This document shows positions 1 through 35,938 of a DNA stretch of 64,000 nt, piece after piece. The stretch's first letter is position 1. Every line of letters starts with the position of its first letter. Made by a program: the position numbers and the translations under genes. The stretch covers positions 278,070,001-278,134,000 of the forward strand of contig CM097883.1 in the NCBI GenBank assembly GCA_044892505.1, read 5' to 3'. The stretch is from Schmidtea nova (Eukaryota). The notes under the pieces are model-generated. The model saw only the letters and a program-made list of their open reading frames with translations, ran no database searches and had not been told where the DNA came from.

Positions 1-1302
1 GTGAATGTAGGTACATTGATTTACATACTCATCCCAGTCGTTTTGATTTTTGTTTACAAAAACTGATAACCTATTTAATAGTGTGCCATTAAATCGTTCA
101 ACTAGGCCATCTGTTTGAGGGTGATATGCAGTCGTATTTATTTTCTGTATGTCAAAGATATTTGCTAGTCTTTGAATTATTTCACTCATGAAATTCTTTC
201 CTCTGTCTGTGAGTAACTTCTTTGGTGTCCCAATTCTAAATATTATTTTTTCTGTTAATAATTTGGCTACTGTTTCTGCGGTCTCATCTTTAGTCGGAAA
301 AGCTTCTGCCCACTTTGTAAAATAATCACTGAAGACTAAGATATGTCTGTTACCTTTAATTGTGACGGGTAATTTGCATAAAAAATCCATAGCGCATAAT
401 TCCATTGGCGAATTTATTACCGGTATTGGATGGAGTGGGGCTTTTGTTCTTGTTCCCGTATTTTTTCGAGTGGCACATATTGTGCATGAGTTACACCATT
501 GCTTTACATCATTTTTAAGATTTTCCCAATAGTATTTTTGTAATAATCTATTAGCTGTTTTTCTAGCTGAAAGATGTCCTCCGAGTGCACCATCGTGATA
601 TTGTAATAAAAGTATTTGTTTCAACTTCTGTGGTACTACTATAAGTTGTTTACCTGTAATATCTTCCATCATTAATACATTTTTGCTTAATTTAAATTTG
701 TTATTACTTCCTTTAATAACTTCATCTCTTACTTTACTAAGTTCAGAATCGTCTATTTGTTCTTGGTATATATCTATTGGATTTTCAGCCACCACGGCAA
801 AAATTTCTAATACGCTTAATTCTGGTATTCGTGATAATGCTTCTGCGTTTTTGTTTATTCGACCAGGTTTATAAATAATTTTTACATGCATATCTTGTAT
901 TTTCATTGCCCATTTTAGTAATCTACTTGATGTATCTTTATGTTTCCATAATCCTTCTAATGGTTTGTGGTCCGTTCGTATTAATACTTCTGATCCATAT
1001 ATGTATTGCTTGAATTGTCTAAGTGCGAACATTATTGCATAACATTCTTTTTCTATAGTTGAATATCGGGTTTCCGCACTTTTTAATGTTTTACTTGCAT
1101 ATGCTATGACATAATCTTTGCCCTTTTCCTCTTCCTGACCTAAGACTGCTCCTACAGCTTTTCCACTAGCATCAGTCATAATGATGAATTGTTTTGTGAA
1201 ATCCGGGTATCTTAATATTGGAGCTGTTACTAATTTTTCTTTGAGTTGCTCAAAAGCAATTTGTTGTCGTTGCGTCCATATTTTTTGTGACTTTCCATTA
1301 TC
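1..1302 (-). CDS. RNase H and integrase, in the same frame as the polyprotein, after a single TAA at 1303-1305
   Basis: Manual translation continues in frame without stops to base 1: WTQRQQIAFEQLKEKL, ILRYPDFTKQFIIMTDASG, RTDHKPL, HDGALGGH...CNSC (HHCC), AMDFL, LLTDRGKNF, YHPQTDGLVERFN (DDE). Confidence 0.92.
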
Positions 1303-4300
1303 TTAATTTATTTTTTGTACTATTTGTGTTTTTCTCCCATCTTCTTTTGTTTTCACTCCCTTTGTTAATTCAATTAATGGGGCTGCAATTTTAGCATAAT
1401 TTTCTATGAATTTTCGATAGTATCCTGTTAAACCTAAGAATCCTTGTATTTCTTTTACATTTTTTGGAATAGGAAACTGTTGTACTGTTTTAATCTTATC
1501 TGGATTTGGAATGATGCCATCAATTGATACAATATGTCCTAAATATAATGCAGACGATTCTGCCCATTTACATTTGGTAGGTTTGATTTTTAGTTTAGAT
1601 TTTCGAAATCTTTCTAATACATTTTTTATGTCTTGAAGATGTCCTTCGAATGTTTTTGATGCTATCAGTATGTCATCCATATAAACGGCACAGTGTTGAA
1701 CATCTATTAGTATGGTGTTCATCAATCTTTGAAATGTTGCTGGTGCATTTACCATCCCGAATGGTAATCTTAAAAATTCATATAACTCATCTTCAATCAC
1801 GAATGCTGATTTTTCTATATCTCCTTCTTCTATTTGAATTTGCATATATCCCTTATTTGCGTCTATAACTGTAAAATATTTAGCACCTCTAAGTTTATCA
1901 TATTGTTCTTGTGCTTTAGGGAATGGATATGAATCTTTAACTGTAACTTCGTTTAATTTTCTATAATCGATGCACATCCTTATCTCACCATCTTTCTTTC
2001 TAACTGGTACTATAGGTGATGCCCATTGTGAAAAACTTTGTCTAATTACTCCTGCTCCTTTTAATTCGTTGATTTGTCTTTTTATTTCTTCCCTAAGTTT
2101 ATAAGGAGTTACATAAGGTCTTTGTTTTAATGGTCTGGCATTTCCTGTATCAATTACATGTTTTATAATATCGGTATCTCCTAGGTCAAATTCATGTTTG
2201 GCAAAAACATCATTATACTCATCAATTAAGGTTTGTAACTGTTGTAGTTGTGTTGCGGTCAAATAATTATTAGTTATTTTAATTTTATCATAGAATTTAA
2301 TATTATTTTTTGAATTTTGTTCGAAGCTCTTTTCGAGGTCATTTCCCATGATGTATAATTCTCCTATTTCATGTTTGTTCAAATCACATTTAGATAATTG
2401 TCCCAACTTTGTACCTTTATGAATTTTAACCTTTTTATTCTCAAAGTTTGCAATTCTTACTGGGATTACACCTTTCTTTGGCATTACACATTCATTTGCT
2501 ACCATAATATTGTTATTTTTTGCCATGTTAGTATTTGGTTCGAAAACGTATGTATCTTCGCTTTGAACATTTACCTTTATAGGTATAATATTATCACTTT
2601 CGTATTCCAATTCAAATTCCTCCATTGCGTAAATGTTTATATCACTTCGGTGGGTCTTATTTATCTTTCTTTTTATTTTATTATCTGATAGATCTATTAC
2701 ATACCCTTTCAATTTTTTAAGGATGTCTATACCTAGTATACATTTTCTATGGCATATATTTGCTACCCTAAACACATGGTTTATTCTTTGATTTTCGAAA
2801 TGAACTGTAAGTTCGATATTTCCTCTGATAGGTATTGTGTGTGAAGAAAGGGATACTAGTTCATCATTTGTCGGTCTAATGTTTTGACGTTGTTGTTCAG
2901 TTAATAACTCATTTTCTATTAATGATGCTGCTGCACCTGTGTCTACTAACGCATTTATAGTTTGATTATTTATCTTTATTTGAGTTCTTGGTCTCATTCC
3001 ATTTGCTTCTTCTCCTTCTTCTATTCCATAGCATCCATATATTCTTTTAGGTTTTTTTGTGAATATATTACCACTATGTTTTTCCACAGGTATTTTGACT
3101 TCAATCTCGTTTTGTAGACTTTTCAATTGCTCCATATGTATAATGTATGGTCCCCCTTGTGGTTGTTCAATGTTTTCAGACTCACTTGTATGATTATTTT
3201 CTTCATTTACATTTTCGTCCATTAATCTGTCTTCTTCCGTTTTTCTAATTATCCTTTTAATATCTTTATCATGTTTTGCTGTTATCAAGTATTTCGCAAC
3301 AAATGGACATAAACAAGCCAACATTTTGAATGAATTACCAAATACCTGCCTTAATTGTCTAAGTGATACTAATGATGAACATATCATTTTCAGTAATGCA
3401 ACTGAATAGTAAATGCCAAGTATAGTTGAGAATGTGTTACCTAAGATTGCAAAATATCCCCAAATACTATATAAAACTTTGTAAACTACCTTTTTAAAGT
3501 GTTCTTTTGATAGAAGTATATCAAAGTTATATTTTCCATCATGGCTGTTCTCTATTATTTTACTGGCGATAACTGTTAATACCTTTTCTTTTTCATTGGG
3601 AAATAATAAGTGTTTTCTTGCGCTTTCTATAGCTTCTTTTGAATATAACCCATTGCTATCAAAATCATTTACTTCGAAGAATTCGAGTTTTTTATCTAAT
3701 TCTGTCATTTCTAGTTTCAAAGGTGTTATTGCTACCTTCTTATCTGACATTGTTATCCATGTTTCATCATCTAGTTGATATAAAGGATCCAATAAATTTG
3801 TACATTTATCAATCTTCTTTGGTGTATAGTTTTTGTCTGTTAGTATTCGTGTAATTGGTTGTAGGTAAACTCTTTCTCCTTTATATATGACAGGTAATTC
3901 GTTTGTACATTGTTTGTTTGTGGCTAGTGCTACACTGACTGGTTTACATTGAAATGTTTGTATGACTTCCCCTACAACTCTTGCAAAAGCGCCTCTTTCT
4001 GAAAAAAGCATTGGGGCCATTAAGTCTGGGTTTGTGATAGCTAGTACCATCTTTGTTCTTAAGATTTCTCGATTAAGCTTACAATCATTTATAATAGTTT
4101 CCTGGTATACTCTATCTAGTTGCATTAGTTGGTGATGGTAAAAGTAATCTATCTTATTATTAAAGTAGGATGAAAGTTTGACATCGTATTTATTGACTTT
4201 TAGTTTTGCATCTTTTATTTCATCTTTGCTTAGATATATACCCTTATAATTGGTCTGTATTATTGATCTCCCACACTTAACACTTTCTCCTTTGCTTACA

Positions 4301-7300
4301 AATCTCATTGCTTCTCCTGAAGATTCTGTCATGTATATCGTTGGTGTATCTTTTTCTTGAATTACTATTGTCTTTCTTTTTCTATCTTTTATTTTTGTTG
4401 ACTCTGAGTTTGTAAATTGTTTGCCTCTTATAGTCATGAATTTTAGTGATTTTAATTTGGTCAAAGGACATTCATACGAATCGACTTTATATATTACAAT
4501 TGATTCTCCGGTATCACAACTTATTTCTTTTGATGTACAGAATGGGTATGTCATCATCTTTTGTGTTACGCTATCGAAAGATGCCTTAAATTGTCTAAGT
4601 TCAACAATATATTCTCTTCTCACAACGGCATTTTTTATAGTATGTCCCCATATCTTGTATTCTCCACCTTGACAATATCCACCATGTGAAGACCATCCAA
4701 CTACATCAACTCGTTGTTTTACACGTGCACCTATCTGTGCTTTTAATTCAATTTCATGTATTTTTATCTTTTTTGATTGAAATGCATGTTCACATTCTTG
4801 TGGAGTTATCGTAATAGTATCCGGTGTAAATGAGGGCCTTAAGATTGTCCGCGCTATGCTGTGACATACAAAAGCCTCTTCTGAATATCTTATTATACAT
4901 TCTCTCGCTTCGGTATGTATAAAATCTGATTCCTGATACACATGATATAATCTAGGTTCGGTTGTAATTAAGTTAATCGGGTTCGCTTCTGGACAGTTTT
5001 CTATATCTAATAGTGAATATTTTTGTCCCCATTTCGGGTTCTGACAGTCGTATGCTATCATGCCCGTACACCCTTTTAATATACTTAATAATATTGCTAT
5101 CATCACTATTATTGTGGATATAAATGATTTATGATCACTTTTCCCTGATTTCTTCGTCGTTTTATCTATTATTTTCTTCAATTTTCTTTCAATTTCTTTG
5201 TCATTAGTACATTGTTGCTCTGCGTTTATCTCCATTGATTCATCTTTTCCTCTTAAGATTTCCCATCCTCCATTTGCATGTATCCAAGGTATCGCATTAT
5301 TTTGTAACTTTGTAAATATCCTTTTAGCAATTTTACTTAATTTCTTTGGTTTCATCTTCAGAACATCTTCTGATTTATAAATAAGATACGCAATTGCTGT
5401 TATAATTCTATTTTCATCAATTCCAGTAGTAAATAAAATATCTAAAACTTCGCCTTCATCCGCTTCTTGCTTTGTTAATCCTTTAATCTCTGACTCTATA
5501 ACTTCAATTTTTTTATATATATTAATAATAAATGATGGAGATCCTATGTGTTCATATACTTTAGGATACATGATTTTTATTAACTCTACTAGTACATCAA
5601 CGTCCTTATCTTTCGTTGACGTTTTGTTTGCAATTTCTTTCAGTTTTTCAGCAATGTTATTATTCTTTAATTTTGGGAGTCTTTTTTCCTCCAACGTAAA
5701 GGTCATTATACCTCCTATAGCTCCTCTCGCGGTCTCTTCCTTATCTTCTTTGTCTGGGCTTAGTTTTGAAATTTTCTTGTTGGCTACTCCTAAACCACTT
5801 TTTATTGAAACTGTTATGACGTTATTTTCACTGGCGTTTATCCCATAATCCATTAAACAATCTTCGTTTTGCATCTTCATCCCAGAAAAATGCAATATTA
5901 TCTCATCATTTATTCCTAGATCGGCATACCAATTTGCTCTGGCTATTTGTTTCATCTTTTTTACCTTTGTACACGCATGTACCCCTTGTTTATGGACAAT
6001 TATTCTAGGTGTATCTTTATCATTTGTTTCTAATGTAATTTCTAGTGGCTCCTGTAATCTTTCATTTTTTCGAACATAATCGCTATAACATTTCAACATC
6101 TCTTTAATTTCAATTTCCAATTCAAATAATTGGGTTAATCTTTGTTTCTTTACTAATAATGGTATCAAATTTCTCAGATTCTCCAGATTTATTCCTTCCA
6201 CATGAATTTTATTTAATATTCTCAAAACTTCATTATCATCAACTAGATAATTTCTCAAAGATTCCTCTAATTCCTGTCTCAAAGTATTCTGTCTATCTAA
6301 TTCTGCAAAAAACTGTTCATCTCTTTCTCTTTGCTGTCTCAACTCTTCATTATCTATCTTAACTTCATTTGTAAAAGTTTTGAATTCGTTTATCGAAACA
6401 TTAATTTTATTTCTTTCGATTAATCTCTCATATTTTGTTTTAAATTCTTGTAATTCATCTCTCAGCATCTCAATTTCATTATTCGACTCTTTAACCTCCA
6501 TACTATTTATTTGTTTAATTTCAGGCTCTTTCTTAAATTGAACTCTATTTGGAGATTCGACTCGTGCATTTTTACATGCTTTTGCCATATGGCCATATTT
6601 CTGACAGTTGAAGCATCTTATTTCTCCGCGAAAATTAACTTTATCTCTCCCATCGTTACTAAACGGACTCGATCGTCTATCTCTATCAAAAGTTTGTCGA
6701 GTGGGACTCATTCTCCGTCCTCTATAATTGTTTCTATTTATTTCGAAATTGTTTCTATTATCACTATTTCTATTTTCGTTAAATCGATTTGTTCGAGTAT
6801 ATTCGAAATAATTACTCCTGTTGCTTGGATTATCATTAAAACGATTATTTCTATTGTACCCACTATTTCTAAAACGACCATCTCTATTATAGTTTCCTCG
6901 ACCCCTACTATCTCGATTATAATAATTATCTATATAATTCCCCACATAAGTATTTTTATCATTAAATTCCAAATGATCATTATTTCGATTATTCGATCTG
7001 CCTCTCGGACTATTAAATCTATTATTGTTGTCAAAACTACGACTCGGACTTGGACTAGTCTTTCTCCTATTTTTAACATAATTCAAATATAGCTGCTTCA
7101 TCTCCTCCCAAGGAATGTTATCATCTTTATCGTTTGACTTGGTTTTTCCTTTTTCAATTTCCTGAATTTCTACTGCATCAATCACAGAACTAAATCTATC
7201 CCTCTGTATTGCTTCAATTCTTCGTGCCTTTTGTACTAACTCATTTAAATTCTCATATTCTACCATGATCAAAGATTTGTATAAATGTTTTTGGATACCA

Positions 7301-7773
7301 TTCCAAAATTGATCCTCAATTAGTCTTGTAGTATGTTCTCCCACACCAAAGGCTTTTCGAGCTAATTCAGTTAAATTATAAACATACTCTCCAATTGTTT
7401 CTCTGCTCCCTTGATATCTATTTCGAAATTTTTGTACATTTATCTTTTGTAAATCTCGCTCGATTACTATTTCACCTCTCAAATTATCAACTAAATCTTC
7501 CCAATTTCTACCCTTACACTCTAAATTATTATATGCTTGTAATGCATACCCCTTTAAATATAACGGTATTCTTCTTTTTAATTCATCTCTTGTCCATCCA
7601 CAAGCTTCTGCACACTGGGCAATTTCATCGAAAAAATCATCAAATTTTTCAGGTTCGTCCTTATAATGCTCTATGGGTAATGTTTTTATCAAAATGTTAC
7701 GGTTATTATTATCCTCATCTCTATTTTGCCAAATATGTCTTATATTATCATTATTTTCATTATTTTGCGCCAT
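1303..7773 (-). CDS. Gag-Ubl-Bcl-2-like-Env-PR-RT polyprotein (first ATG at 7773; ORF track starts at an upstream TTG, 7797)
   Basis: Capsid-like RIPLYLKGYALQAY; knuckle CFNCQKYGHMAKAC (~6575-6616); Ubl-like LHFSGMKMQNEDCLMDYGI (~5843-5900); BH2-like WIHANGGWE (5260-5286); hydrophobic signal FISTIIVMIAILLSILKGCTG (~5060-5125); Cys-rich ectodomain; TM (~3365-3480); protease ALVDTGAAASL (~2925-2955); RT YMDD (~1673-1684). Confidence 0.92.
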   Translation of the reverse strand: MAQNNENNDNIRHIWQNRDEDNNNRNILIKTLPIEHYKDEPEKFDDFFDEIAQCAEACGWTRDELKRRIPLYLKGYALQAYNNLECKGRNWEDLVDNLRGEIVIERDLQKINVQKFRNRYQGSRETIGEYVYNLTELARKAFGVGEHTTRLIEDQFWNGIQKHLYKSLIMVEYENLNELVQKARRIEAIQRDRFSSVIDAVEIQEIEKGKTKSNDKDDNIPWEEMKQLYLNYVKNRRKTSPSPSRSFDNNNRFNSPRGRSNNRNNDHLEFNDKNTYVGNYIDNYYNRDSRGRGNYNRDGRFRNSGYNRNNRFNDNPSNRSNYFEYTRTNRFNENRNSDNRNNFEINRNNYRGRRMSPTRQTFDRDRRSSPFSNDGRDKVNFRGEIRCFNCQKYGHMAKACKNARVESPNRVQFKKEPEIKQINSMEVKESNNEIEMLRDELQEFKTKYERLIERNKINVSINEFKTFTNEVKIDNEELRQQRERDEQFFAELDRQNTLRQELEESLRNYLVDDNEVLRILNKIHVEGINLENLRNLIPLLVKKQRLTQLFELEIEIKEMLKCYSDYVRKNERLQEPLEITLETNDKDTPRIIVHKQGVHACTKVKKMKQIARANWYADLGINDEIILHFSGMKMQNEDCLMDYGINASENNVITVSIKSGLGVANKKISKLSPDKEDKEETARGAIGGIMTFTLEEKRLPKLKNNNIAEKLKEIANKTSTKDKDVDVLVELIKIMYPKVYEHIGSPSFIINIYKKIEVIESEIKGLTKQEADEGEVLDILFTTGIDENRIITAIAYLIYKSEDVLKMKPKKLSKIAKRIFTKLQNNAIPWIHANGGWEILRGKDESMEINAEQQCTNDKEIERKLKKIIDKTTKKSGKSDHKSFISTIIVMIAILLSILKGCTGMIAYDCQNPKWGQKYSLLDIENCPEANPINLITTEPRLYHVYQESDFIHTEARECIIRYSEEAFVCHSIARTILRPSFTPDTITITPQECEHAFQSKKIKIHEIELKAQIGARVKQRVDVVGWSSHGGYCQGGEYKIWGHTIKNAVVRREYIVELRQFKASFDSVTQKMMTYPFCTSKEISCDTGESIVIYKVDSYECPLTKLKSLKFMTIRGKQFTNSESTKIKDRKRKTIVIQEKDTPTIYMTESSGEAMRFVSKGESVKCGRSIIQTNYKGIYLSKDEIKDAKLKVNKYDVKLSSYFNNKIDYFYHHQLMQLDRVYQETIINDCKLNREILRTKMVLAITNPDLMAPMLFSERGAFARVVGEVIQTFQCKPVSVALATNKQCTNELPVIYKGERVYLQPITRILTDKNYTPKKIDKCTNLLDPLYQLDDETWITMSDKKVAITPLKLEMTELDKKLEFFEVNDFDSNGLYSKEAIESARKHLLFPNEKEKVLTVIASKIIENSHDGKYNFDILLSKEHFKKVVYKVLYSIWGYFAILGNTFSTILGIYYSVALLKMICSSLVSLRQLRQVFGNSFKMLACLCPFVAKYLITAKHDKDIKRIIRKTEEDRLMDENVNEENNHTSESENIEQPQGGPYIIHMEQLKSLQNEIEVKIPVEKHSGNIFTKKPKRIYGCYGIEEGEEANGMRPRTQIKINNQTINALVDTGAAASLIENELLTEQQRQNIRPTNDELVSLSSHTIPIRGNIELTVHFENQRINHVFRVANICHRKCILGIDILKKLKGYVIDLSDNKIKRKINKTHRSDINIYAMEEFELEYESDNIIPIKVNVQSEDTYVFEPNTNMAKNNNIMVANECVMPKKGVIPVRIANFENKKVKIHKGTKLGQLSKCDLNKHEIGELYIMGNDLEKSFEQNSKNNIKFYDKIKITNNYLTATQLQQLQTLIDEYNDVFAKHEFDLGDTDIIKHVIDTGNARPLKQRPYVTPYKLREEIKRQINELKGAGVIRQSFSQWASPIVPVRKKDGEIRMCIDYRKLNEVTVKDSYPFPKAQEQYDKLRGAKYFTVIDANKGYMQIQIEEGDIEKSAFVIEDELYEFLRLPFGMVNAPATFQRLMNTILIDVQHCAVYMDDILIASKTFEGHLQDIKNVLERFRKSKLKIKPTKCKWAESSALYLGHIVSIDGIIPNPDKIKTVQQFPIPKNVKEIQGFLGLTGYYRKFIENYAKIAAPLIELTKGVKTKEDGRKTQIVQKIN

Positions 7774-7953
7774 TCTATATACTATTCGGTTTCTCAAATT
7801 ATAAATTATTTCGGGTTGATTATCAATGTTATTTCACTATTATCTCAAAAATTTAATGTCCAATAATTTTTATATTTATAAATAATCCCAATATACAATA
7901 TCCCTCTGATCTCAATTTCTATCCCCCAAGTTGATTTATTCACTTTAATTTAG

Positions 7954-7971
7954 TCCCGGTTCGCGGCACCA
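7954..7971 (-). other. Primer-binding site, most like tRNA-Phe
   Basis: Minus strand reads ...CTCAACA-TT-TGGTGCCGCGAACCGGGA: 18 nt starting TGG, 2 nt after a CA LTR end, resembling the complement of animal tRNA-Phe 3' ends as I recall them. Confidence 0.75.
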
Positions 7972-7973
7972 AA

Positions 7974-8202
7974 TGTTGAGGTTCCCAGAATCTCAACTTG
8001 GTATCTTATATAAATAAATAAGATAACACTGGTTCAAAGAATTTATTCAAATACAACAAATACAAATTACCTAAAAATTATTATAGATTCACAATGTTGT
8101 TCCTATAATGTGTAAATATATATGTATGCGTGTGTATGTGTGAATGCCTTCTGAGCTCGATATCTTGTATGCTCGAAATTATTATTTCAATAGTCGATAA
8201 CA
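7974..8202 (-). repeat. Candidate 5' LTR (~230 bp)
   Basis: TGTT...AACA termini. The PBS-side boundary is firm; the distal boundary (8202) is inferred from terminal symmetry only. AATAAA on the minus strand near 8043. Confidence 0.55.
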
Positions 8203-9229
8203 ACTATGAAATTCTTCTTACGCAAAGATTTTATGGGTGATTTAACTGAAAAATCAGTCAGTTTATATACTAAATTTTAAGGCACTTAATCTGTCAATAA
8301 TGATTGTTATTTTGCCTCTTGAGTTGATTGAATTTGTTTTTGAAAATAGAGTTGTTTTCAAAACAGAATTGTTTTCAAAATTATTTTTTAACCTTGAGAT
8401 ATTATTTCATTTTTCTGACCTTGTAGGTCAGAAATATAATTTATTTAAACAAACAGTAATTTATTTATTTTTAATTTATTTAAACAATCTGTATTATTTA
8501 TTTATTTTATTATTATTATTATTTATTGAATTAAAATATTAAAATATAAATGAAAATATAATCCATTTTCCAAATAGTTAAAAATTAATTTACATAAAAT
8601 ATTTTCAACACAAAATATTTTTTCAAAATTATATAAAATTTTGTCCATCACCATAAAAATGTCAATAAATGTTCGCAATATCACAAATGATAAATTGTCA
8701 TGCTGATAAATTGTCATTACAAAAATTAATTGTCAACAATATTTTATTAACAGAAACAAAATAAAATTATCCCATAAAAATAAAAATTGCCAAATAGTCA
8801 TCACATAAAATATTATCATATAAAATCACTAAAATCATAATGTCATTGAATTTGATATTTTCCATTGATTATTGACTTGTCATTGCCATCTGATCCACAT
8901 GTATATTTATCCTGTATCTTCCATTTCCTACTGTATAATGTTTTAATTTTAAAACCCTTATTCTACGCCCATCTTCTAACAATAAATCAAAAACAAAAAC
9001 TCGCCGGTGTTTGTTAGTCTTAATTTGTAACGAGTTCTTTGTTTTGTTATTTGAATTTGCCACGTTGTTTGCAATAATTTTAAGCGCCTCTCTCAAAGGA
9101 ATTTTTGTTTTGAACATTCAAGTTTAGTTGGTTCTCGTTTACAATTTTTTGGAGAATGAGTAAGTGAATAATCAATTTGCATACTTTTGATGCTTCATAA
9201 AACTTTTCAATTTAGTTTAGCCACGGACA

Positions 9230-10683
9230 AGGTTTTTAAAAAATCTTCTACTCAAGAACGAAAAGTCCCAGATCAAAGAAAAGGAAACAAGCGAAAGTTC
9301 AAGGAAGAATACATCGAATATGGTTTCGTAGCAAAAGAATCAGATGATTCTCAAGTTCCTTCTTGTTTGCTTTGCAACTCAACCTTATCGAACGAATCTC
9401 TTGTCCCGAACAAACTGAAGCGACATTTGGAGAAAGATCATCCAGCGCAAAAAGACAAACCATCATAATAATTCGAAAAGCTTGCAGTTGAGATAAAACA
9501 ACAATCGGAAAAGCTTGTCAGTATTTGCACCGATGGATGTCCTTCAATGCACGGGGAAAACATAAGTTTTGTAACTCGTGCGCGTCAACAAAATCCCAAT
9601 ATCGTCCCCGTCCACTGCATGATTCATAGAGAAAGTCTCGCATCCAAATCATTGCCGAAAGATTTGCAGTCTATCATGATTCAAGTTGTTCAAATAGTGA
9701 ACTTCATCAAGTCCCGACCACTCCAATCACGACTCTTTGCACAGCTTTGTGAAGCAATGGACTCCGATTACGAGTGCTTACTTTATCATACGGAGGTCCA
9801 CTGGCTTTCAAAAGGAAAAGTTCTTAAAAGACTTGTACATCTCAAAATAGAAGTGGTTTCTTTCCTTGAAATTGAAGATAAAGATTTTGGATTCCAACTG
9901 CATGACGAAATCTCGTGGTTGAAGGTTCAGTTTCTCCGATTTATTCGATAAACTGAATTCGCTGAACATGAGTCTTCAAAGACGATGCGAGAACATCATC
10001 ACATCTTCATTGAAGTTGAATTTATTTATTGAGAAACTGTCCTTGTGGTAAAGCAAAATATCGAAAGGAATATTCGACTGCTTTTCATTTGTTAACGAAT
10101 CTCAAGATAAGAAGAAAATTAGCAATGAAATTTTGCACACTCTTAGTGAACTCCAATCGTCACTTCAATACTATTTTCCATCACTTGACATCGACGAATT
10201 TCCTTGAGTGATCATTCCGTTTGCCATCAGTGAAGTCAATTTGACGACCGAAGAGGAGGAGCAGCTGATTGAATTGAGAAATGACAAATTCTATCAAACA
10301 ACGTTCACGAACAAGACTTTGGAAGAATTCTGGCTTGCATTTATGAAAAATTATCCTTTAAACCAGTTTCAAAGCAGTCAAAATTCTGTTGCCATTTTCA
10401 TCTTCATGGTTCTGTAAAATTGGCTTTTCTGCATTAACTGAAATCAAGTCCAAGAAGCGAGAGAGACTTCTCAGAATTGCTGATGAGATGCGGGTTTGCT
10501 TGTCAACTTGGGAGCCGCGATGGAATATGATCTGTTCCCTTAAGCAGGCACAGCCATCACACTGAATTAACATGTACAAAATGAAATCATTTAAATAAAA
10601 TAACTTTAAAATATTTTGGTGTGTCGCGAAAATTCTCGGATATTTTTAGTGTGTCGTAAACCAAAAAAGGTTGAGAAATACTG
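9230..10683 (+). mobile_element. Decayed, internally deleted hAT (Buster/Charlie-like) transposon
   Basis: BED finger CLLCNSTLSNESLVPNKLKRHLEKDH; SICTDG; HCMIHRESLASK; C-terminal SNLEPRW..LKQAQPSH; right TIR aaggttgagaaatactg ends at 10683. No left TIR seen. Frameshifts and stops present. Confidence 0.88.
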
Positions 10684-11236: not shown

Positions 11237-12055
11237 ATGCTTAATGAAGAATTGGCCGAAGACAAAGATTCTATTGATAATGAATTGTTACGAAATGTGG
11301 TCAATAAAATCGAGAGCTCTCTTATGGATGATTTAATTAATGTGATGTCTTCGCGAGATCCAATTATTTCTGATAAAGTGCGATCTTCAGTAATTGTAGA
11401 AAAGCTACAATTTAATTCACCGATATCTGACAATAATTATTGGTGTGAATTGAATGTTGGTTGAACACCTCTTACAGAAAAACTCAAAAATTCTCCAATT
11501 TGTAAACTTTGTTATAATTTTCGAACGGGCATTATGTCCAATCCCAGACTCATTCTTGATGATATAGAAGATGGATCTGAGGGAAATGATACTAATAAAA
11601 CTGATGATATAATATTGATGCTCGTAAATCGAAAAGACAATTTAATCACTTCTTTCCAATCTCAGTTCGACCAATGGCCAAATTCGTATAAAGACAGACC
11701 ATATCTGAGGAAAATGATCAGTAAAAGACGCAAGGATTATCTAAAATTATGCGCCTCGAAAGAGGACTTGTCTCTGTCACGATTCTTAGAGAGTTTTGGA
11801 GAGGCAATGAAGTCAATTCCAAGGACTGTTTTTCTTTCAGAGCTTCTAATCAGCGTCAGGACACTTTTAGAGGATCCTCGTCAAATGGATAAGCCACTAT
11901 TATTCAAAACCGATCCAAGTGGGTTTGTAGCTGGTCATCGAGCTGTTGCTGTCGGTGGAAAACAATTGGAAGCTAAAAGCTATGGGGAAAAGAAGCTTCG
12001 TAAAAATACAGAATTTTCAATTGATGAGAAAATCAATCGGAGCTGGACGCGGTGA
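11237..12055 (+). CDS. Two orphan ORFs (75 and 173 aa) of unknown function, possibly TE-derived
   Basis: Protein-like composition, but no recognisable motif. Truncated or overlapped by the gag-pro remnant at ~12050. Confidence 0.25.
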
Positions 12056-13873
12056 ACCACCTTCATTAAAATATTTTAAATTCAATTTTTCAGCAATCAT
12101 TTTAGATAAAACGCTTATTTTTGCTCCTGTGTCAAATAATGAATTAAAAGTCGCATTATTTAATTTAACATCATTAAATGGTCTACCATCTACCTTACAA
12201 TATCCTATATCAAATATATCTTTAATAACATTTACACTCGGTAATTTTAACTTTTTATTAAATATATTTAAAATGCAATCATTTTTATAACAATCACTCA
12301 CAAATATACTGTCATTCTCATTTTGTTCATTATTACAATTATTAATTAAATAAAAATCATAATAAGATTTTTGATTGGGGAAAAAATCAACATTAACATT
12401 ATCAAACAAACCATCAACTAAACAATCATTACATTCAACATTTAGGGTCCTCAAAAATTTATCATTGCTTACATGTGATTTATCGCTCCTAACATATCCC
12501 CTCTGCTCGGAGCTTTGGCATTTCCCGATATCTCTGACTGTCCATCACAGTCTCTCGATTCATCATCATCTACTGCAGCCACGTGATCTCCATTGTTTCG
12601 ATCATTTTCTTGATTAGAACTTCAATTGTATCGATTGAAATTTCCATTGTTTTGATTCGAAGTTCTTTGAAATCTCATCTCGTAGTGATGTTGTTTCTGA
12701 AAACATTGAAAACTTAAATGACCTGCTTTTCCACAACCCGAACAACGAGTATTTGGGCATTCCAGACTAACATGACCAATTTCACGGCATGCGTAACATT
12801 GCATTTTTGAATATTGATCTGAATTTCGATTTTGATAATTGTTTCCATTTTGAGGTCTTCCACTGAAATTTCTACTGAAATTCCTTTGATAATCTGATCG
12901 TCCTTGAAATTGATTTCTTTGTAATTTTTAAAATTCATTTTTCTTATCAATTTGATTTCGTTGATTTCCATAACTATTTCTTTTTTTCATTGGAATTGTA
13001 TTGACCGTTTTTCACAATTGACGCGTAAGAGCCTTTTCCAACGGCTGAAACTTGTTGTATCTTTGATTTATCTTCATCCAATTTCTGTAAAATTCTTTTA
13101 ATATATTTATTTGCCGTTGGACCTTTCTGAACTGACTCTCCATCATTTCTGAAATCTTCTTTCGATAATTTTACTTTCAGCAAATCTTCCGTCATTTCAT
13201 ATCTTTTTATTTCACATTTTTCTTCTTCATTATTAAGACAATGCTTTAGGAAGAATGTTGTCAAATTTAACATTGTTAGCTTGTGCTTCAGAATTTTCTG
13301 AACACCTTTCTCAATTTTGCTAATGTATGTTTATGCATCATCTTCTCTTTTTCGATAATTTAGCAAATTTTCCAAATCCTTAGCTAAATCCTGGTTTGCT
13401 TCGAACGCTAGTCTAAGCCTTTTCACATAATCTTCTTCATCTGGAATCTTGTCATATTTGTTGCGGCAATTTTCGTCCAGATAAGCTTGAACAATTACCT
13501 TTATTTGATTATTGTCTAACTGAATAATTGAAAAATATGATTCAATCTTCTCAATAAATTCTTCCAAATCGTCTCCAATTGAATAGATTTTCGGCTATGG
13601 GAGAATCCGTAATAATTCCTGAGTTGAAAGCGTGGTCGCCATGTAAAGAATAAGAATGACTTTTGAAGTTCTTAAACTTTATTTAAGAAATTTTGGTACT
13701 ATTTATAGTACCCTGTGTGCCGACACCAGCACAATCAGCAAAGCTTCTTGGGAAAATAATAAATAATGATGTCATCTAAGGGCCCAGTCAATCAGGCATA
13801 ATCAATCACACATGCAGGCATGACACAATATATAATAAGGGTTAGGGAAATCAAATATCCCATTATAATTACA
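12050..13873 (-). mobile_element. Decayed LTR retrotransposon remnant (LTR-PBS-gag-protease)
   Basis: Gag N-terminus (EEFIEKIESYF); two CCHC knuckles (CYACREIGHVSLEC, CSGCGKAGHLSFQC); protease LFDTGAKISVLS; multiple stops and frameshifts; candidate LTR 13642-13873 (TGT...ACA). Confidence 0.85.
13631..13641 (-). other. Primer-binding site, tRNA-Arg(TCG)-like
   Basis: TTTACA|TGGCGACCACG directly abuts the LTR end; an 11-nt match to the complement of the tRNA-Arg 3' end as I recall it. Confidence 0.6.
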
Positions 13874-19800: not shown

Positions 19801-22800
19801 AAATGAAATTAATAATAATGATAATTAATAATAATATTAATTAATTAATAATTAATAAACAATAAAATTAATAAAAATAAAATTAAAAAGATTCTAATAA
19901 AATTAAGATTCTAATTAAATTAAGATTTTAATTAAATTAAGATTTTAATTAAATAAAGTTAAGATTCTAAATAAAATTAATTAATCAAAGTTTGGTTTAT
20001 TTATTTTACACCACAGGGTTGCACTTCAGTTACAGCATTTTTGCAGCCAAATATTATGATAATTATGTTTCTGCGACCTCTGGCAAACTGTCACGCGACT
20101 CCAAGGTTGGGAACCACTGCTTTATACAGATATTATGGCACAGATTTTTTTCCAAGACCCCTTTTAGTGGGTTTCTCAGCCATAGCATGTTGCATGCCTT
20201 CAGTTGACGTACTAAAATTTCAGGAATAATTTCAGATGCAGCTCCAACATGAATTTCATCATAAGGCGATAAACCTTCATACCCCTCTCTACCATCACCT
20301 ATTTTTAAATGCAAATGGCCTGTATATACGAGTTCTTTAATTTCTGGAATTTTATTAATATTCAAAATAGATTTATGAACAAGTTCTTTAATGTGATCAA
20401 TTCCTACAACGACTCCTTGGTTGCCAAGCCTTTTCATAAAACGAGCAGTTAAATATCCGCTACCTGTACCAATATCAAGAATTCTAGCACCCGGCTTCAA
20501 CCTAGGCAGAATTTGTTCAAGTGCTACTGCATGCATGTGTGGAGCACTGATAGTTACACCAAAACCAATCGATTTTGGTGAATCGTCATCAACAAAATTT
20601 GCACGATCAATCGATAACATTAAATATTCTACCTCATCCGAATGAATATACTCGTCATTTTTTTAAACGTTGGGTTAAATCAGCTTTTGAATTAAATCCA
20701 CTAAGAAATTTAAAAATAGTTTGGCTAAGGAAAAAAATAACTATTAATCGACTATTTGAAATCATTTATTTTGACGAATGTTAACACGTTTTCTACCATT
20801 TTTAAACTTCAGAAAAAAAGTATTTAATCTAAAAGAAATATTAAAACAAACACCATCTTTTTAAGTAAATAAATGTAAATGTAAATAAAAAATAAATAAA
20901 ACTCAAACAACTCAGAAACGCCAAATCAGCCAATATCACAACCAAGTTATCAAAAATATAAAGTTTTTAGAAAATCTTCGATATCGACTTTCTAGACCAC
21001 TACACCCCTCCCCCCTAGACAAAGACATGTTACTATTTATAGACAAAGATACTTACAATTTTTTCCAAGTCGCTATGACTCATCATCGAAAACTTATATA
21101 AGCCAAGACAAAAACCCATTGTTTAAATATAGTTTTGGCTCCATTTTGATAAGTTTAAACAAAGACTTATATTATTATTATTTTATAAATATGTTTATAT
21201 GATGTGTGTTAGTCATGTTTTCACAGACGCTTAGACTATAAATAGTAACATCTCTTTGTCTATTGGAAGGGATAACATAATATCTTTAGTAACATATAAG
21301 TTATCGTGAGGGAGGGTCTTCAACTAAAATAAATTTCTATGCCAAATATATATAGTCTATATATAGTAACATGTCTTTGTCTAGGGGGTTGACTTAAAAA
21401 AATTTTCATGGATGTATATGCAAATGGCTTTGATTTCCATAGTAAATGATGAGTCACCGCGAACTCACAACTTTTTCCATGAGTGTAGCTGCAAACACAC
21501 ACAATCAGGCTTGTTTTTATGTGGGTTTAATTGGCCAAAAATATTTCGGCACAGCCTTTATCAAGTGTGTAATACACCGTGTTTCAATGGCGTTTCTCAT
21601 CTATAATAATCAGTACCTTATCCATTGCTGTTTAACTGAATCGTAGCATTTATTATGTCGTAGACAGAGATAGAAAAAAAAATAAAATTACACACAAACA
21701 CAAAATATAGAAAAAAACAGATGTAAACTTTCAGATGCGTTTTTTGTTTTATTCTCTAATCTCATTCAATATTTTAATCAACACAAAAATTGTAAATTAA
21801 AATGGCCGATAAATTTTTTTAAATGAATCTGAGGAATCTACCTTGGGTTTTCATGAAAATGATGACATATCATCGTAAGTAATATAATTTAAAGTTAGAA
21901 TAAATTTATATTTTCAAAGATTTTCAGAAAATTCAATGGAAACAATTCCATTTCATGAAGATGACGAAATATCTTCGTAAGTAATTTAATTTAAGTTACA
22001 ATAAATTTTTATTTTCACAGAATGTCAGAAAATTCAATAGAAACTATTCCATTTCGTGAAGATAAATTGGAATATGATATCACTTATATTTATTTATTAA
22101 AATATTTACAATGATATTAGCCTTTCAGATATTACATGTACCTCTAGATACTGCATTACATAGGATACTCGAAAAAATGTTCGAAAATGGTTAGTTGAAA
22201 TAATATTTATTTAAAAAGTTAATGGACTTTTATAAGATTTCAGATATTGATAAAGGCAGAATAATAAGTGCAATGGAAATTTACTTGGAATATCAAAAAG
22301 TTCTATCAGAAAAATAATTTATATTTATAAAAAATATGGCCACCTACCAATGTACAAAAGAGGTGGCAGTAAGCCTCAAATTTCTGAAGAAACCGGAAAT
22401 AATTTATTGGATTTTGTGGAAAACAATTTAGGTGCATCCTTAGAGGAAATGAGAAAATTCCTCAACCAAATCAATTGCAATGTAGCAAGAGCGACAATTT
22501 TTAGGTTTCTGAATAGGAATATAATAACATTATAAAAATAAGGCCATGTGTAGCTGCTCGAAATTCAGACCACGTCCTCGAGTTAAGGTTACAGTATGTA
22601 ACTCGCTTTTTAGACGAAGCATAACAAGACAAAAAATTAATTTACATTGACGGGTGTGGATTTAATTCATGGTCAGGCCAGAATCTGGGAAGGAAGAAAA
22701 AAGGGGAAAGAATTTATTAGATAGTACCAACTAACCGAGGCTCAAATATGTCACTGGCTCTTGCAATTGGCTTAAAAGGACCAGAACATCACAAATTAGT

Positions 22801-24569: not shown

Positions 24570-27500
24570 TAATAATAATATTAATAATAATAATAATAAT
24601 TGTAATTATAATAATTATTTTAATAAACGTGGCAAAGATTTAATTGATGAAAAACGCCACTCAAAAATTTCACGATTTATTTCGACTGAGATTTTGAAAC
24701 CAAGCATATTTGATTTTTTCACATAACCTTAATTGCGATAACTAATATTGGGCACTTCTTTCGATCGAAATTTTCAAGAACTCGAGTACCGAGATGAAAG
24801 ACAGTCTCTCCAATCTTTTTGGCATTACACCCATTACATATAAATTTTAACGACATCTCTACACAATCCAATTGTAGTTTTCCATTTTTTAACAAACACA
24901 CTACGTATTTTGTACGAACTGGAGACAATCCTATAGTTTAGACTACCTGTTCTGACAACTCAACACGAAATCAAGATATTATTGTACATGATCATCACAT
25001 TGTCTAACACTAGAATACATTGCCTCAGGTCATTGATAGCAGCAACCGAATCAGGATAATCCATCACAATATCAAATATTGATTCAACTCGCGTATCGAA
25101 AATAATTCTATGAAAGAATTCACTAGACAGAACGGAATTGAGATTTCCATTTTTAAATGTCTGTGGAAATAGACTCGGAATGACTCTTCTTTCAATTATT
25201 GGTGTTTTCTTGTCACAAATCTTCTCCAAAACATTTACATTATATTCAGTATTATATAAAGCCAATATTTTTCTGATATAATCCTTCAAAACTTCAATAA
25301 ACATGTTGATAAATATATTTTCTATGGGAATAAGGCATGAATTCATTGCATTAAACACACTTTCAAATAGAACGAAATAATTGTGATTCGAATTCTTCTC
25401 CATCAGATCGATATTTGTAATATTCAATTAGCAAAAAACTACTTTCCAATGTAATTACCAATAACCATTCAATTTTATCAAATAATTGAAGAAATTCAAA
25501 ATAAAACAATTACCAATTGGATTATTAAAACAATTCAAAATAATCAATAAAAATCAATTAGAAAATCCATTTAATTCAAATTTAAAAAGATCCCAAATAA
25601 TCCAACTACCAATTGGACTATTAAAACAATTCTGATTTTCAGAATTCAATTAAATTTCTTGAATAATAGCAAGAAAAATTCAATAAAACCACGAACGCGC
25701 ACACAGGCGCGAAATAACCATTAATTTAGCGATGCGCACACAGGCGCTGATAAAGCCACTTAGCAACTGCAGCGCACACCGGCGCAAACAAACCAAAAAC
25801 TACCAAAGCCCCGCGCACACAGACGCACAAAGGGCAGACAGCCAAAATCACAGCTCCGCACACACAGGCGCGAGCAGATAGCCAAAGTTTGCTACATGCA
25901 AACTTTGGCTGAAACACTACCCAACTGCTTATCAATCTTGTTGTCATAATCTTTAAACCCCTCCGAATCATAAATTCAGGCTCTCTACATTATATTATAT
26001 ACCAACCAAATTATATCTGCATATATTGGAATCCTTAGGATTATTGGCACACTTGTTCAAACTCTTCCTCGCCATCAATGGAAGCCGTTTTGCATAACTT
26101 TGATCGATAAATCATTCAATTAATTCATCAACACTTTTTACCGAATTCCTTGATGATAATTTCCTTGAAATATATTTCATTAGTTTAGTGTTTGCGTATA
26201 TATATATATATATATATATATATTCACATAATTTAAGTTTTTGATCTGATAAGATAAAATTGCTTACCTTTTAAATTTGAATTATTTTCTTATAATATTC
26301 AATGTGCCACATAAAACACTCGTATTGGGTTCGTTCTAATATGTTATATATGTAAACTATGGTGGTTAAATGATCTTAAAATATTAATAGGGTTTTTCTT
26401 CTATCTCATATATTATTATATATTGATTTTGACAGTTATCCTATATTTATTGGAGTCCCGATAAATGTATCAGGTGAACTCACTTTGTCCACAATAGTGA
26501 TTTATTTTAATTTTATCATTAGAATCAAATAAAATGGTCACGAAAACTTTAAATACTCCTCATAATTTCTCAAATGAAAACGAGATTACTCGTTTGATTG
26601 AACATCATCGTGAAGATGACCCTGAACAATTATTCCGAGACAATCGTTTGCTCGGAGAGTTGATGCCAAGTCGTTCATTTGGTGATGTGCGTTATAAATG
26701 GCCACAAGAGTGGCTGTGTGAATTAGACGCTTACATAAAAATGCCAGGAAACCTATCGAAATGTCCGACTCCATATACCAATCCTCCATATCTCACTGCA
26801 GAACCAGAAGTTTACAAATATGTCGTAAGTTATTATCATCTATGATTTACTAACTGCCTATAAAACCAGTCGGATGACGGTGGCATTTTTTGAGTATATA
26901 TAAAATCTGATATGGCGCGATGGACCTATAAATATATACAGGGTGTTGATAAAAAGGTGGTACGAAATTTTACGCATGCAGTTTTTATGAAAACAAGCAT
27001 AAAATTCTATACACCAAAGGGCATAAATTAAGGGCCAGACAGGCAAAATTTAAGGTATCTATAATAACAAATTATTTTATATATAAAAAAAATACACATA
27101 CCTACTGCAGATCAGGACAAAGATAAAAAGCAGTCATAAATTACGGGCCTATACTATAGAAAATAAGAAAAATAAATTAGGTCGAAAAAGCACACTTACA
27201 CAACACACTAAAAACCTATAGTGAAAAGTACAAACACATGGACATAATTTAAGAGACAGTCTTTAATTAAGGATTTTAAAATTTTAAAAAATCAAGATTT
27301 ATGAAGATATTTCAGAAAATTTTTTGGAATCAACTGTACTATTTATCGGAGAGGATCAAGAAGAAATGTAAACTTACAATTATATTAAAAAAATTTCAAA
27401 AAAAATATTTTTAGAAATGCAGAAATTAAAGCTATAATGCCTCAAATGGCTGAAACTGTAGAAAAAAACATCGAATTTTTATAGATAATCGAACATGACA

Positions 27501-30500
27501 AAAGAAATTACTAAAAGAAGTAATGAAACGGCGTGAAAATTATGAAGAATTCGGCAGGCAAATTTGTTTTGAACCTAAAATTATTAAAGACTTAGTGTCG
27601 AGGTAGAAAAAACTGGCATTCTTACAGCAGGGAAAAGAGGCAGATAAAATGTTAGCCTAATAATATAAGAAAATGGAATACAATGAATTGATTGTGTGGA
27701 CCACAATTATTGGACTACTTTGGAAGAAATGAAAAGCTTCTTGGATACAATTAGCTGCAATGTATACACAAAAACAATATCCAAATGTTTAAAAGGTAAG
27801 CTGATAAAATTATAAAGACTTACTTTATTCTGTATTTTATAAATATCTAAAAATATCTAGATAAAATAAATTGGTATTTAACTTAAAATATTAAATAAAT
27901 TTAAAATATGCTAAAATAGCTTAAATACATAGCTAAAAAATTAAATATATATAAAAGCCTTATCACTGTATGTGCCTGTAACGCTGACCACATTGGACAG
28001 TCTACTTACTATAGTAAGTATATTAAAATTGAAATTTATTAATTTTTTATTAAAATAAATTTATTAAGTTTATTTATTATCAGCGTTACAGACACATACA
28101 TACGCTGACTACATTAGACAGTCTACTTACTATAGTAAGTAGATTAAAATTGAAATTTTTTGAAATTTATTAATTTTTTATTAAAATAAATTTATTAAGT
28201 TTATTTATTATCAGCGTTACAGACTGTAACGCTGATAATAAATAAACTTAAATAATTTATTTTAATAAAAAATTAATAAATTTCAAAAAATAACTTACAG
28301 ACACATACATACGCTGACTACATTAGACAGTCTACTTACTATAGTAAGTTGATTTATTATCAGCGTTACAGACACATAGATACGCTGACTACATTAGACA
28401 GTCTACTTACTATAGTAAGTATATTAAAATTGAAATTTATTAATTTTTTATTAAAATAAATTTATTAAGTTTATTTATTATCAGCGTTACAGACACATAC
28501 ATACGCTGACTACATTAGACAGTCTACTTACTATAGTAAGTAGATTAAAATTGAAATTTTTTGAAATTTATTAATTTTTTATTAAAATAAATTTATTAAG
28601 TTTATTTATTATCAGCGTTACAGACTGTAACGCTGATAATAAATAAACTTAAATAATTTATTTTAATAAAAAATTAATAAATTTCAAAAAATAACTTACA
28701 GACACATACATACGCTGACTACATTAGACAGTCTACTTACTATAGTAAGTTGATTTATTATCAGCGTTACAGACACATAGATACAGTGACAAGGCTAGCA
28801 CGGGATAAAGCCTAGTTAAAAAATAAATAAGAAGATAATAAATACCAACTGCCTGTATTAAGTGTCTTCTGGTCCTTAATTACAGACTGATGGTGTAGCA
28901 ATGTGTCTTAAAATGAATCCGTTAAAAGTTAATAAGAATAAGAATAATTAACTTGAAATTAAAATAATAATAACAAAATTTAAGTAAATTTAGATATAGG
29001 TTGAACGGACGGATGGACAGTGGCATTTTGTATATATGATCATAATACAATGTTGGTTACAATCTATCAAGTCTATTTTAAAACCTTTAAAAAATATTTC
29101 TGCCTAAAAGATCTGTTTTCCTTACGTTCCACAGTTTTCTCTAGAGCTGACAGCAATAAATGCGTACAACAAACAATTTGAAATCATGCATCTAAAATGA
29201 TTATTCAAAAGATAAATGACCTCAAAAGAATGGAAATTCTCTACCAACTTCAAAATATATAATTCAAATCATTAACGTGGTTGCCTTGAAATTCTCCTTT
29301 ATAACCGGAAAGCGGTAATGATTGGAATAGCTGACATATTAATTTATTTTGAAATATTACAAAAAAATTCCAATTTCATTTATTTGCATTCTTTCAAGCT
29401 ATATATCAAAAGGTTTTCAATTAATTTTATATTCAATTGAAAACATTTTGATTTGAAAGAATGAAAGTTATCGGAACTCTAAAATTATTAAAAATGGAGA
29501 AGATTAAAGATTTTAGTGATATGGATTCTAATTATTAGTTAGATTTGATTTATGCCTATTTATCTACTTTAACTGTCATTAATCAGGTTAATGTCTTTCT
29601 CTGTATCCCTCTTAATCCCTCCTAACTAAAAGTAATGTTATTTAATTGAATCAATCATATAAGCAAAAATTTTCCTTGATGGATTGGACAATTTTTTTTC
29701 AAAAAAATTACTAAACAAATTTTTTGCCTTAAGGAAAATTGTAAATATTTTGCTGAAAAATTTAACTAAAAATATTGGAATACACACCCATATTTCTCCT
29801 AAAGGTAGTGGTTGATATGTCATTGGTTTTCCTCCTAAATTCCAAATATTCAACAATTTCTGCTAGATTCGTTCATAAAGGCACCCCCATCTTATTGCCA
29901 GTTTAGAAATATTTTCTGNNNNNNNNNNNNNNNNNNNNNNNNNNNNNNNNNNNNNNNNNNNNNNNNNNNNNNNNNNNNNNNNNNNNNNNNNNNNNNNNNN
30001 NNNNNNNNNNNNNNNNNNNNNNNNNNNNNNNNNNNNNNNNNNNNNNNNNNNNNNNNNNNNNNNNNNNNNACACTGTCTTATTTAAAATTCAGAACAAAGA
30101 ATCAAATTAGGTCTTATTTTAAGGTCCATATTTTCTAAATAAATATAATTTAATTACAAGTTGTCATTTATTCAAATATAGTCGTGCCATCTAACTCTCC
30201 AACATCGTCCCCATTATTATTCTCTCTCGTCACTGGTTGAATTATCGGTTCTTGTTTGATATTTCCCCCCACTTAAAATTAAATTATAAAATAAAAATAT
30301 AAAATATAACATACGCAATTTAAATTTATTTAATAAGTAATAAAATAGTTGTGTATAGTATTAATTCAGCAAGACAAATTTAATTGTAAACCAAATTAAT
30401 TGCGTCAATAATACGCTCAAAGGTATCACCTCCAAATCTTTCTCTCCGCATGAATTCTTGCAAATAAGTATCGAGTAAATCAGAACTCGTTCCGCATTCT

Positions 30501-35636: not shown

Positions 35637-35714
35637 CGGGTTTCCCATATCGCTCGGGTTTCCCACATCGCTCGGGTTTCCTACTAGCTCGGGTTTCCCA
35701 TTAGCTCGGGTTTC
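35637..35714. repeat. About 4.5 tandem copies of a 17-18 bp unit (CGGGTTTCCCAYATCGCT-like) within a possible LTR-like segment (~35115-35900)
   Basis: Repeat read directly; the LTR assignment is tentative. Confidence 0.75.
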
Positions 35715-35938
35715 TTATAGAGTAATTAATTATTTTAATTAATTTGTATTTTCTAAATATTTCATTCTGGGGACCCCTTTTTATTTTTTTATACCCATAT
35801 TTGAATTGGTCTCATCATTTAGCATCCTCCCATACCAGTTTCCCCTCTCAATTTTTATTTTGAATTTTTATAAATTTTTAATTAATGTTTGCACATTAAT
35901 TATTATTTTTCCAATTTTCGTATCTTTATCTATTTGCA

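Follow-up and report, generated by a model that had tools for sequence, protein, structure and literature searches.

How can a retroelement assemble when its capsid, envelope and enzymes share one membrane-threaded chain? The question is raised by an element at the left end of a 64,000-nucleotide stretch of the Schmidtea nova genome (assembly GCA_044892505.1, contig CM097883.1, positions 278,070,001 to 278,134,000; hereafter the window), in which the envelope protein (Env) is encoded between Gag and Pol. The gag-env-pol arrangement is known and adds little alone; the interest lies in what it means for assembly. We think it probable that the window carries a recent, now stop-broken copy of a compact, multi-copy, Burro-like Ty3/gypsy element, whose intact frame of about 2,970 amino acids (aa) codes for Gag, then ubiquitin-like and Bcl-2-fold domains as cargo, a class III Env and Pol, and lastly an FN3-fold domain with a transmembrane (TM) helix, and whose polyprotein likely passes the membrane four times.

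A first-pass annotation of the window had described a single frame running from Gag through Env to protease (PR), reverse transcriptase (RT), RNase H (RH) and integrase (IN), and had given no strand. The frame lies on the minus strand, as do all features of the element given below, and contains every motif quoted in that annotation, in order. The claim of one unbroken frame does not hold for the window copy: between 7773 and 1 there is exactly one stop codon, at 1303..1305 between RT and RH. The open reading frame (ORF) at 7833..1303 comprises 2,176 aa from stop to stop, or 2,156 aa from the Met at 7773, and because the stop precedes RNase H, RH and IN cannot be part of the same chain in this copy. 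The stop is private damage of the window copy; many sister copies are without it. A search of the S. nova genome (1.25 Gb) for matches to Env gave 3,705 candidates, and 82 matches were scored. Frames of 2,973–2,993 aa are open at 20 of the 46 scored matches with at least 97% identity and at 14 of the 36 with 89–90% identity. Since long open frames recur at many genomic Env matches, chance and assembly artefact can be set aside. The window element has at least 46 close copies in the genome.

Together with its part in the left neighbouring stretch (L021), the element measures 12,839 bp; beyond the left edge of the window the frame runs on for 382 aa, and ORF2 and the 3' long terminal repeat (LTR) come after it. 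The 5' LTR (7974..8981; 1,008 bp, with TG..CA ends) shows one mismatch to the 3' LTR at L021:6143-7150, left of the window. A target-site duplication of 4 bp (8982-8985) adjoins the 5' LTR, and duplications of this length flank all six copies of the family that were checked. The primer-binding site (7954..7971) is an 18-nucleotide match to the 3' end of the host tRNA-Phe(GAA) plus CCA. The TG..CA repeats, tRNA primer site and short target-site duplication are features of Ty3/gypsy elements, and the pol order PR-RT-RH-IN, read from Pfam matches, is that of Ty3/gypsy (Metaviridae). Because the LTRs differ at one base and are accompanied by the 4-bp duplication and the tRNA-Phe site, we conclude that this is a young Ty3/gypsy provirus, whose family has been transposing until recently. 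A tRNA-His primer was considered and rejected: the match is to tRNA-Phe, and comparisons with tRNA-His were negative. The tRNA-Phe(GAA) genes of the host lie in a long 240-bp tandem array (L123, G000:C1 at about 566.9 Mb), the pattern having 2,706 genome-wide matches. Among copies of the window's family (A; L022-L031) LTRs are between 1,008 and about 1,730 bp long, with LTR pairs within a copy 98.5–100% alike.

Three further groups of the same plan were recognised: family B (2,960 aa), family C (3,029–3,038 aa) and families D/E (3,359–3,367 aa), the last carrying four CCHC knuckles compared with one in the window element. Counts given below out of eight refer to elements with a long ORF; a ninth element, split into three ORFs, and two giant elements carrying BIR domains, fetched for comparison and lacking a long Pol ORF, were excluded. 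The element is covered by three contig runs of unknown kind, whose depth and joints are uninterpretable for expression or splicing.

Up to integrase the domain order is Gag, ubiquitin-like domain, Bcl-2 fold, signal peptide, class III Env, TM helix, PR, dUTPase-like region, RT, RH and IN. Pfam families matched in the polyprotein are zf-CCHC, Monjiviricetes_fusion (PF24664, E 3.9e-87), RVP, RVT_1, RT_RNaseH, Integrase_H2C2 and rve. Gag (6019..7773) has a weak PNMA match (E 0.025) and comprises a capsid-like N-terminal part, an R/N-rich region, one CCHC knuckle (6574-6615; zf-CCHC, E 2.6e-4) and a coiled coil; its ratio of non-synonymous to synonymous change (dN/dS) is 0.04–0.08. The aspartic protease (2701..2994; motif LVDTGA) matches RVP with E 3.8e-9 and is followed by a weak dUTPase-like region (2374..2634; PF00692, E 0.028) in the position that such a domain has in Burro. 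The reverse transcriptase (1519..2106; Pfam, motif YMDD) is closest among solved structures to Ty3 RT (4ol8, E 1.5e-59, as against ~1e-32 for foamy-virus Pol), a comparison of similarity only. RNase H (892..1278, Pfam E 1.4e-37) and integrase (1..636, Pfam; zinc finger 460-636, core 118-411) complete the enzymes.

The Env ectodomain (3454..5061) is 536 aa long and contains 14 cysteines, 13 of which are invariant over all covering rows of a 10-row alignment. Its motifs are AYDC (at about 5058), SLLDIENC (5016), ITPQEC (4809), GEVIQTFQC (3972), CTNELPV (3909) and LQPITRIL (3864). The top hydrophobic segment of the whole ORF, residues 884-902 (5124-5068), stands immediately before mature Env and falls within an internal signal peptide (SP1, 5062..5124), with cleavage predicted before MIAYDC; by eye, small residues occupy positions -3 and -1 in five of five subfamilies. 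After the ectodomain comes a stretch (3004..3441) in which the hydrophobicity scan places a TM helix (TM1, 3367-3441; approximately residues 1445-1469), a borderline second hydrophobic or amphipathic helix (3277-3345) and a predicted cytosolic tail. An AlphaFold model of cargo and Env was built from 15 sequences, and domains I/II of Env reach a pLDDT (predicted local distance difference test) of 80–90. In Foldseek searches with the Env model, herpesvirus gB was the best match in the PDB (E 6e-9), with baculovirus GP64 also among the best, and a chuvirus glycoprotein was the best match in a library of viral structures (E 2e-26); comparison with human cytomegalovirus gB by VIA gave Z 9.3 and a root-mean-square deviation (rmsd) of 4.9 over 250 aligned residues. 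These predicted structures, together with the Pfam match, support a class III fusogen fold, and the gB/chuvirus type suggested in the first-pass annotation is borne out by the model. Between families A and B the dN/dS of Env is 0.05, equal to that of integrase.

Features that the first-pass annotation did not contain are the identity of the cargo as ubiquitin-like and Bcl-2-fold domains, the in-frame stop, a membrane protein after integrase, and ORF2. The weakly supported ubiquitin/SUMO-like domain (5794..6012, residues 588-660) was found by profile matches (PF11976 with E 0.0024 in one of five members, PF00240 in two of five) and is without a C-terminal di-Gly. A profile of the region matched 59 PDB entries, all ubiquitin-like, at single-domain E values of only 0.04–1; model confidence is low and dN/dS is 0.15. 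A role for the domain as a cleavage signal for host deubiquitinases was rejected: the RGAIGG of family A is missing in B, C and D, and di-Gly is not conserved. The Bcl-2-fold domain (5242..5595, residues 727-844) was recognised by Pfam and structure comparison. Its Pfam match lies below the cut-off in the window copy (E 4.5e-4) and above it in sister family C (E 1.9e-7); the model aligns with Bfl-1 over 112 residues (VIA Z 8.6, rmsd 3.7), and Bcl-2 proteins make up 20 of the top 26 VIA rows. The domain has a dN/dS of 0.32 and retains BH2 (WxxxGGW). The BH1 motif NWGR is degenerate: its W and G are missing in eight of eight element copies, which makes canonical BH3 binding doubtful, and INWGRI is present in two of nine non-element matches that were read. 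SP1 ends 52–67 residues downstream of BH2, presumably about where Bcl-2 proteins bear their tail anchor, and likely doubles as the tail anchor of this domain. The cargo region matched none of 2,962 candidates in a search against long proteins.

The frame does not end with integrase. Beyond it lie a second signal (SP2), a domain of about 90 aa, a P/T/K-rich stalk, a strong TM helix (TM2) and a basic tail (L021:8855-9526, left of the window), and this layout of SP2, ectodomain, TM2 and tail recurs in eight of eight elements. Small residues stand, by eye, at -3 and -1 of SP2 in five of five subfamilies. The second ectodomain is modelled as an eight-stranded beta-sandwich (pLDDT 74.5), and FN3 domains (irisin, Dscam, fibronectin, cytokine receptors) make up nearly all of its best structural matches; scores are modest (Foldseek, irisin on top at E 4e-3; VIA, fibronectin at Z 8.8, rmsd 4.0, 92 aligned), and the resemblance to an FN3-type beta-sandwich is at the level of the fold only. 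Atlas matches to the module, FNDC5 and FNDC9 included, all score below 0.9 and provide a lead only, and a search of 1.8 billion proteins returned two matches, both repeat or TM artefacts. Selection is uneven along the module, with dN/dS of 0.40 in the second ectodomain, 0.06 in SP2 and 0.09 in the tail. KYKWKRQRYRS, after TM2, is identical in families A, B and C, and the chain ends in T-x-V in six of eight elements (STLV, ETFV) and in STLC or SILC in the other two (L021:8855-8950 and relatives). The terminal T-x-V resembles a class I PDZ ligand.

The novelty implied in the first-pass annotation for an in-frame Env between Gag and Pol cannot be upheld, since such elements have been published. 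The published description of the planarian Burro polyproteins lists Ubi2/SUMO-like, BCL-2, Env, PR and dUTPase-like domains and terms Burro the first instance of an env that sits between gag and pol in frame (Arkhipova and Yushenova 2019, PMC6431247); function and expression of Burro1 are cited in PMC13465017 and PMC8532177. According to Chary and Hayashi (eLife 2026, PMC13524379), GAG-ENV-POL elements with gB-type Env occur in Nematoda, Bryozoa and Platyhelminthes and are reportedly not monophyletic. The window element has the features of their HSV/gB type: Env lies between gag and pol, and a gB-like ectodomain with conserved cysteines stands between signal peptide and TM helix. Smed_errantivirus_3 of that study resembles it in Ty3/gypsy Pol, HSV/gB-type Env and gag-env-pol order; in Env domains I/II, 168 of 245 residues are identical (about 69%, by eye), and elements 1, 2, 4, 5 and 6 are visibly farther. 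The passages and supplement rows on the Smed errantiviruses make no mention of cargo, post-integrase module or ORF2, and give no tRNA for the six elements and three copies for element 3, compared with tRNA-Phe and at least 46 close copies in the window's family (PMC13524379).

Burro/GYPSM1, as described in PMC6431247, has the same in-frame ubiquitin-like and BCL-2 domains before Env and a dUTPase-like domain between PR and RT, the ubiquitin-like and dUTPase-like domains being weak in the window element. It differs in exceeding 30 kb, with an ORF of 4,873–5,140 aa, two to three CCHC knuckles and MATH, BIR and ankyrin domains, whereas the window element has 12.8 kb, 2,973 aa, one knuckle and no Pfam match to MATH, BIR or ankyrin families in the polyprotein scan; nor does the description of Burro in that review mention an FN3/TM module after integrase. 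Because it has 12,839 bp and 2,973 aa, as against more than 30 kb and an ORF of about 5,000 aa, the window element is Burro-like and not Burro1-4 itself; it is a member of the flatworm GAG-ENV-POL group. Bdelloid Juno and Vesta LTR elements also share features with it, namely an ORF for a 3'-5' exonuclease that lies downstream of pol, and a dUTPase between PR and RT (Rodriguez et al. 2017, PMC5408684). Their ORF3 is a DEDDy exonuclease, whereas ORF2 here is ISG20-like (DEDDh type) and occurs alongside Env; its catalytic residues are lost in families A–C. The post-integrase FN3 membrane module was met in no report in the literature found, although absence is unproven; Sacco 2022, Grohme 2018, Lee 2026 (Dev Cell) or their supplements may describe the module or ORF2. 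Apparently undescribed so far are the post-integrase membrane protein, the implied four-pass topology, the use of tRNA-Phe as primer, and an ORF2 of ISG20-like type.

Relatives with the same layout of signal, Env and TM helix are P0003, P0004, P0008 and P0009. In P0003 and P0004 Bcl-2-like sequence is kept before the signal; in P0009 Gag is joined directly to Env with no cargo, and P0008 has two protease-like domains after Env. The nematode NERVs, said to have been described by Sacco et al. in 2022 (J Gen Virol 103:1739), reportedly have gag, env, pro and pol in one continuous ORF, the glycoprotein being of RNA-virus type, and extra ORFs that differ from those of the window element; their hosts, too, are different, being nematodes. 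Env and pol stand in flipped order in them, as they do here (as cited in PMC13524379). The two giant elements with BIR domains (L107-L111 and L112-L116) are about 25 kb long, with LTRs of 4.1–4.3 kb, a 399-aa BIR ORF and others; one of their ORFs ends in EETFV, like the D-family tail. They are possibly non-autonomous Burro-like elements. Genome-wide, at least 150 matches to BIR were scored.

What was observed is the sequence with its domains, the folds predicted for them, the structure of the copies and the purifying selection; topology, cleavage and roles are inferred. An approximate insertion-energy scan, combined with flanking charge, was applied to the part from Env to the end in eight elements. 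In all eight, no other segments have as low an energy as SP1, TM1, SP2 and TM2; net charge is +2 to +5 upstream of SP1 and SP2, and positive charge follows TM2 in families A–C. Because these four segments rank lowest, with positive charge before both signals, Gag-cargo and Pol are likely cytosolic and Env and FN3 luminal, with four crossings of the endoplasmic reticulum (ER) membrane. The entry by signal and exit by TM helix suggested in the first-pass annotation remains the best reading of hydrophobicity and charge in all eight. In the D family N-glycan sequons number 6–8 in the 326-aa second ectodomain, as against 5–6 in 1,333 aa of Pol. The post-integrase membrane protein serves as an internal check on the topology, and is a candidate partner for the gB-like fusogen.

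On this topology, SP1 would insert with its basic N-terminal side in the cytosol and be cleaved by signal peptidase before MIAYDC; Env would enter the lumen until TM1 stopped its transfer, and PR, RT, RH and IN would fold in the cytosol. SP2 would restart translocation for the FN3 domain, and TM2 would leave a basic cytosolic tail with its terminal PDZ-ligand-like motif. Once cleaved, SP1 may stay with the Bcl-2 domain and serve as its tail anchor, keeping Gag membrane-bound. Pol, held by TM1 on one side and SP2 on the other, would remain tethered until released by the element's own protease. Capsid, enzymes and envelope would so collect on one membrane, from which enveloped particles that move between cells could bud. 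The polyproteins of flaviviruses, alphaviruses and hepatitis C virus are likewise single chains whose parts are distributed to cytosol or lumen by internal signal peptides and stop-transfer helices. The likeness is an analogy only; the window element has another fusogen class and replicates by reverse transcription.

Several findings weigh against this picture. The quality of the cargo and Env model is middling, with a mean pLDDT of 59.5 and TM-scores of about 0.3–0.4 to the targets, low global TM-scores being expected because the model is of a flexible monomer. Env of families A–C is without a good N-glycan sequon, so that glycosylation lends no support to the topology there. A second hydrophobic helix follows TM1 in eight of eight elements (approximate dG +1.6 to +3.5, compared with -1.2 to +1.2 for TM1), and were it inserted, Pol would be luminal. 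The call of the ubiquitin-like domain is weak. The FN3-fold scores are near a level that common beta-sandwiches attain; Pfam and PDB sequence searches with the post-integrase module gave nothing meaningful; and the second ectodomains of A–C and of D, the latter longer, do not align, so that the shared layout may hide two separate captures.

In herpesviruses the gB-like fusogen needs helper glycoproteins. We put forward tentatively, as a rather doubtful extension, that these flatworm elements are retrovirus-like agents with an envelope, which enter cells by means of two glycoproteins released from a single four-pass polyprotein. One would be a gB-type fusogen, encoded before Pol; the other, encoded after integrase, would be a captured FN3 protein acting in attachment or as a decoy, with a PDZ-ligand-like tail that would steer budding to a cell junction or pole. 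The Env signal peptide would also anchor the Bcl-2-fold protein that holds Gag on the membrane. Accessory roles in host manipulation or attachment are likely for the FN3 protein, for the Bcl-2 fold, whose BH1 is degenerate, and for the ISG20-like ORF2. Whether Burro-like elements are true proviruses spreading between cells is a question raised in the 2019 review (PMC6431247); in a compact, recently active, many-copy family of RNA interference-tractable animals it should be easier to test than with 30-kb Burro.

The ratio of products is a separate matter, on which ORF2 has some bearing. ORF2 lies at L021:7038-8720, left of the window, extends into the 3' LTR and is broken in the window copy; in other elements it is found at L023:3263-4858 and L093:4090-5535. 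In the D family it matches ISG20L2 (E 5.8e-7), with ExoI D-x-E and ExoIII H..D motifs in both copies aligned. ORF2 of families A–C, the window's included, is homologous to that of D; because its catalytic set (D-x-E, D, H, D) is not intact and its dN/dS is nevertheless 0.17–0.25, it is likely a pseudo-nuclease. Reading by eye of the sequence between the end of ORF1 and the start of ORF2 (e.g. L023:~3050-3265) showed, in each of six elements, several CCAAT-like boxes, one TATA-like box and, just ahead of ORF2, a short stretch GT..TTTTAG, which suggests an internal promoter with a small intron and makes at least one subgenomic RNA likely. Capsids require Gag in large excess over Pol, a need that elements with a single ORF often meet by splicing or turnover. 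Both points would suit an element whose product ratios are uncoupled by splicing or by messages with an internal start: Gag would be made in surplus, or Env or FN3 by itself, the full polyprotein would be minor and a 1:1:1 ratio would fail. We regard this as unlikely: there is no conserved splice donor near the gag start across families and no conserved frameshift signal, and in the scan for suppressed synonymous change no segment went beyond the minimum obtained by shuffling (observed 0.64; mean of the null 0.65). An A_AAA_AAY heptamer occurs at the same Gag/cargo place in A, B and both C copies; a programmed -1 frameshift there was rejected, as codon usage yields the heptamer in about 64% of cases for R-K-N and no structure follows downstream (z +0.2 to +1.4).

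Env might also be kept for budding at internal membranes or for cell-cell fusion inside the animal, with no free extracellular particle, FN3 and the Bcl-2 fold then serving host-cell survival or adhesion. High genomic copy number fits replication within a stem-cell lineage, the lack of usable sequons in Env of A–C is accompanied by the lack of any R-x-K/R-R site, and a pro-survival role of the Burro1 IAP domain is cited at second hand (PMC13465017, PMC8532177). We nevertheless hold this reading decidedly improbable, since Env is constrained like integrase and keeps 13 of 14 cysteines among diverged relatives, and the furin site is reportedly not always conserved in this Env class (PMC13524379). 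It is very improbable indeed that Env ends in two TM helices, with Pol of the full-length chain luminal and active Pol supplied by another message or by incomplete insertion: the second hydrophobic stretch is conserved in all eight elements and recurs in the free-standing glycoprotein P0007, but it is weaker than the first, holds Lys/Arg and has basic flanks on both sides, and the polarity of SP2 is signal-peptide-like only if IN is cytosolic.

The remainder of the window contains other mobile and host-like sequence. A decayed copy of the D family occupies about 34,400-45,900 (minus), with Gag, cargo, Env, PR and RT in pieces of 41–76% protein identity, RH at 34.4-35.1 kb and an LTR-like stretch at 35,115-35,936. 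A further retroviral protease fragment lies at 12,017-12,544 (minus), an IS1595/Merlin-like transposase at 30,380-31,300 (minus, E 1.6e-13), and a broken hAT-like transposase remnant, recognised by eye and without a Pfam match, at 9,200-10,000 (plus). Pieces of host-like genes, all on the minus strand, encode a protein-isoaspartate methyltransferase (20,063-20,662, E 3e-45), an ANAPC2-like protein (24,960-25,427) and an RRM protein (63,046-63,999).

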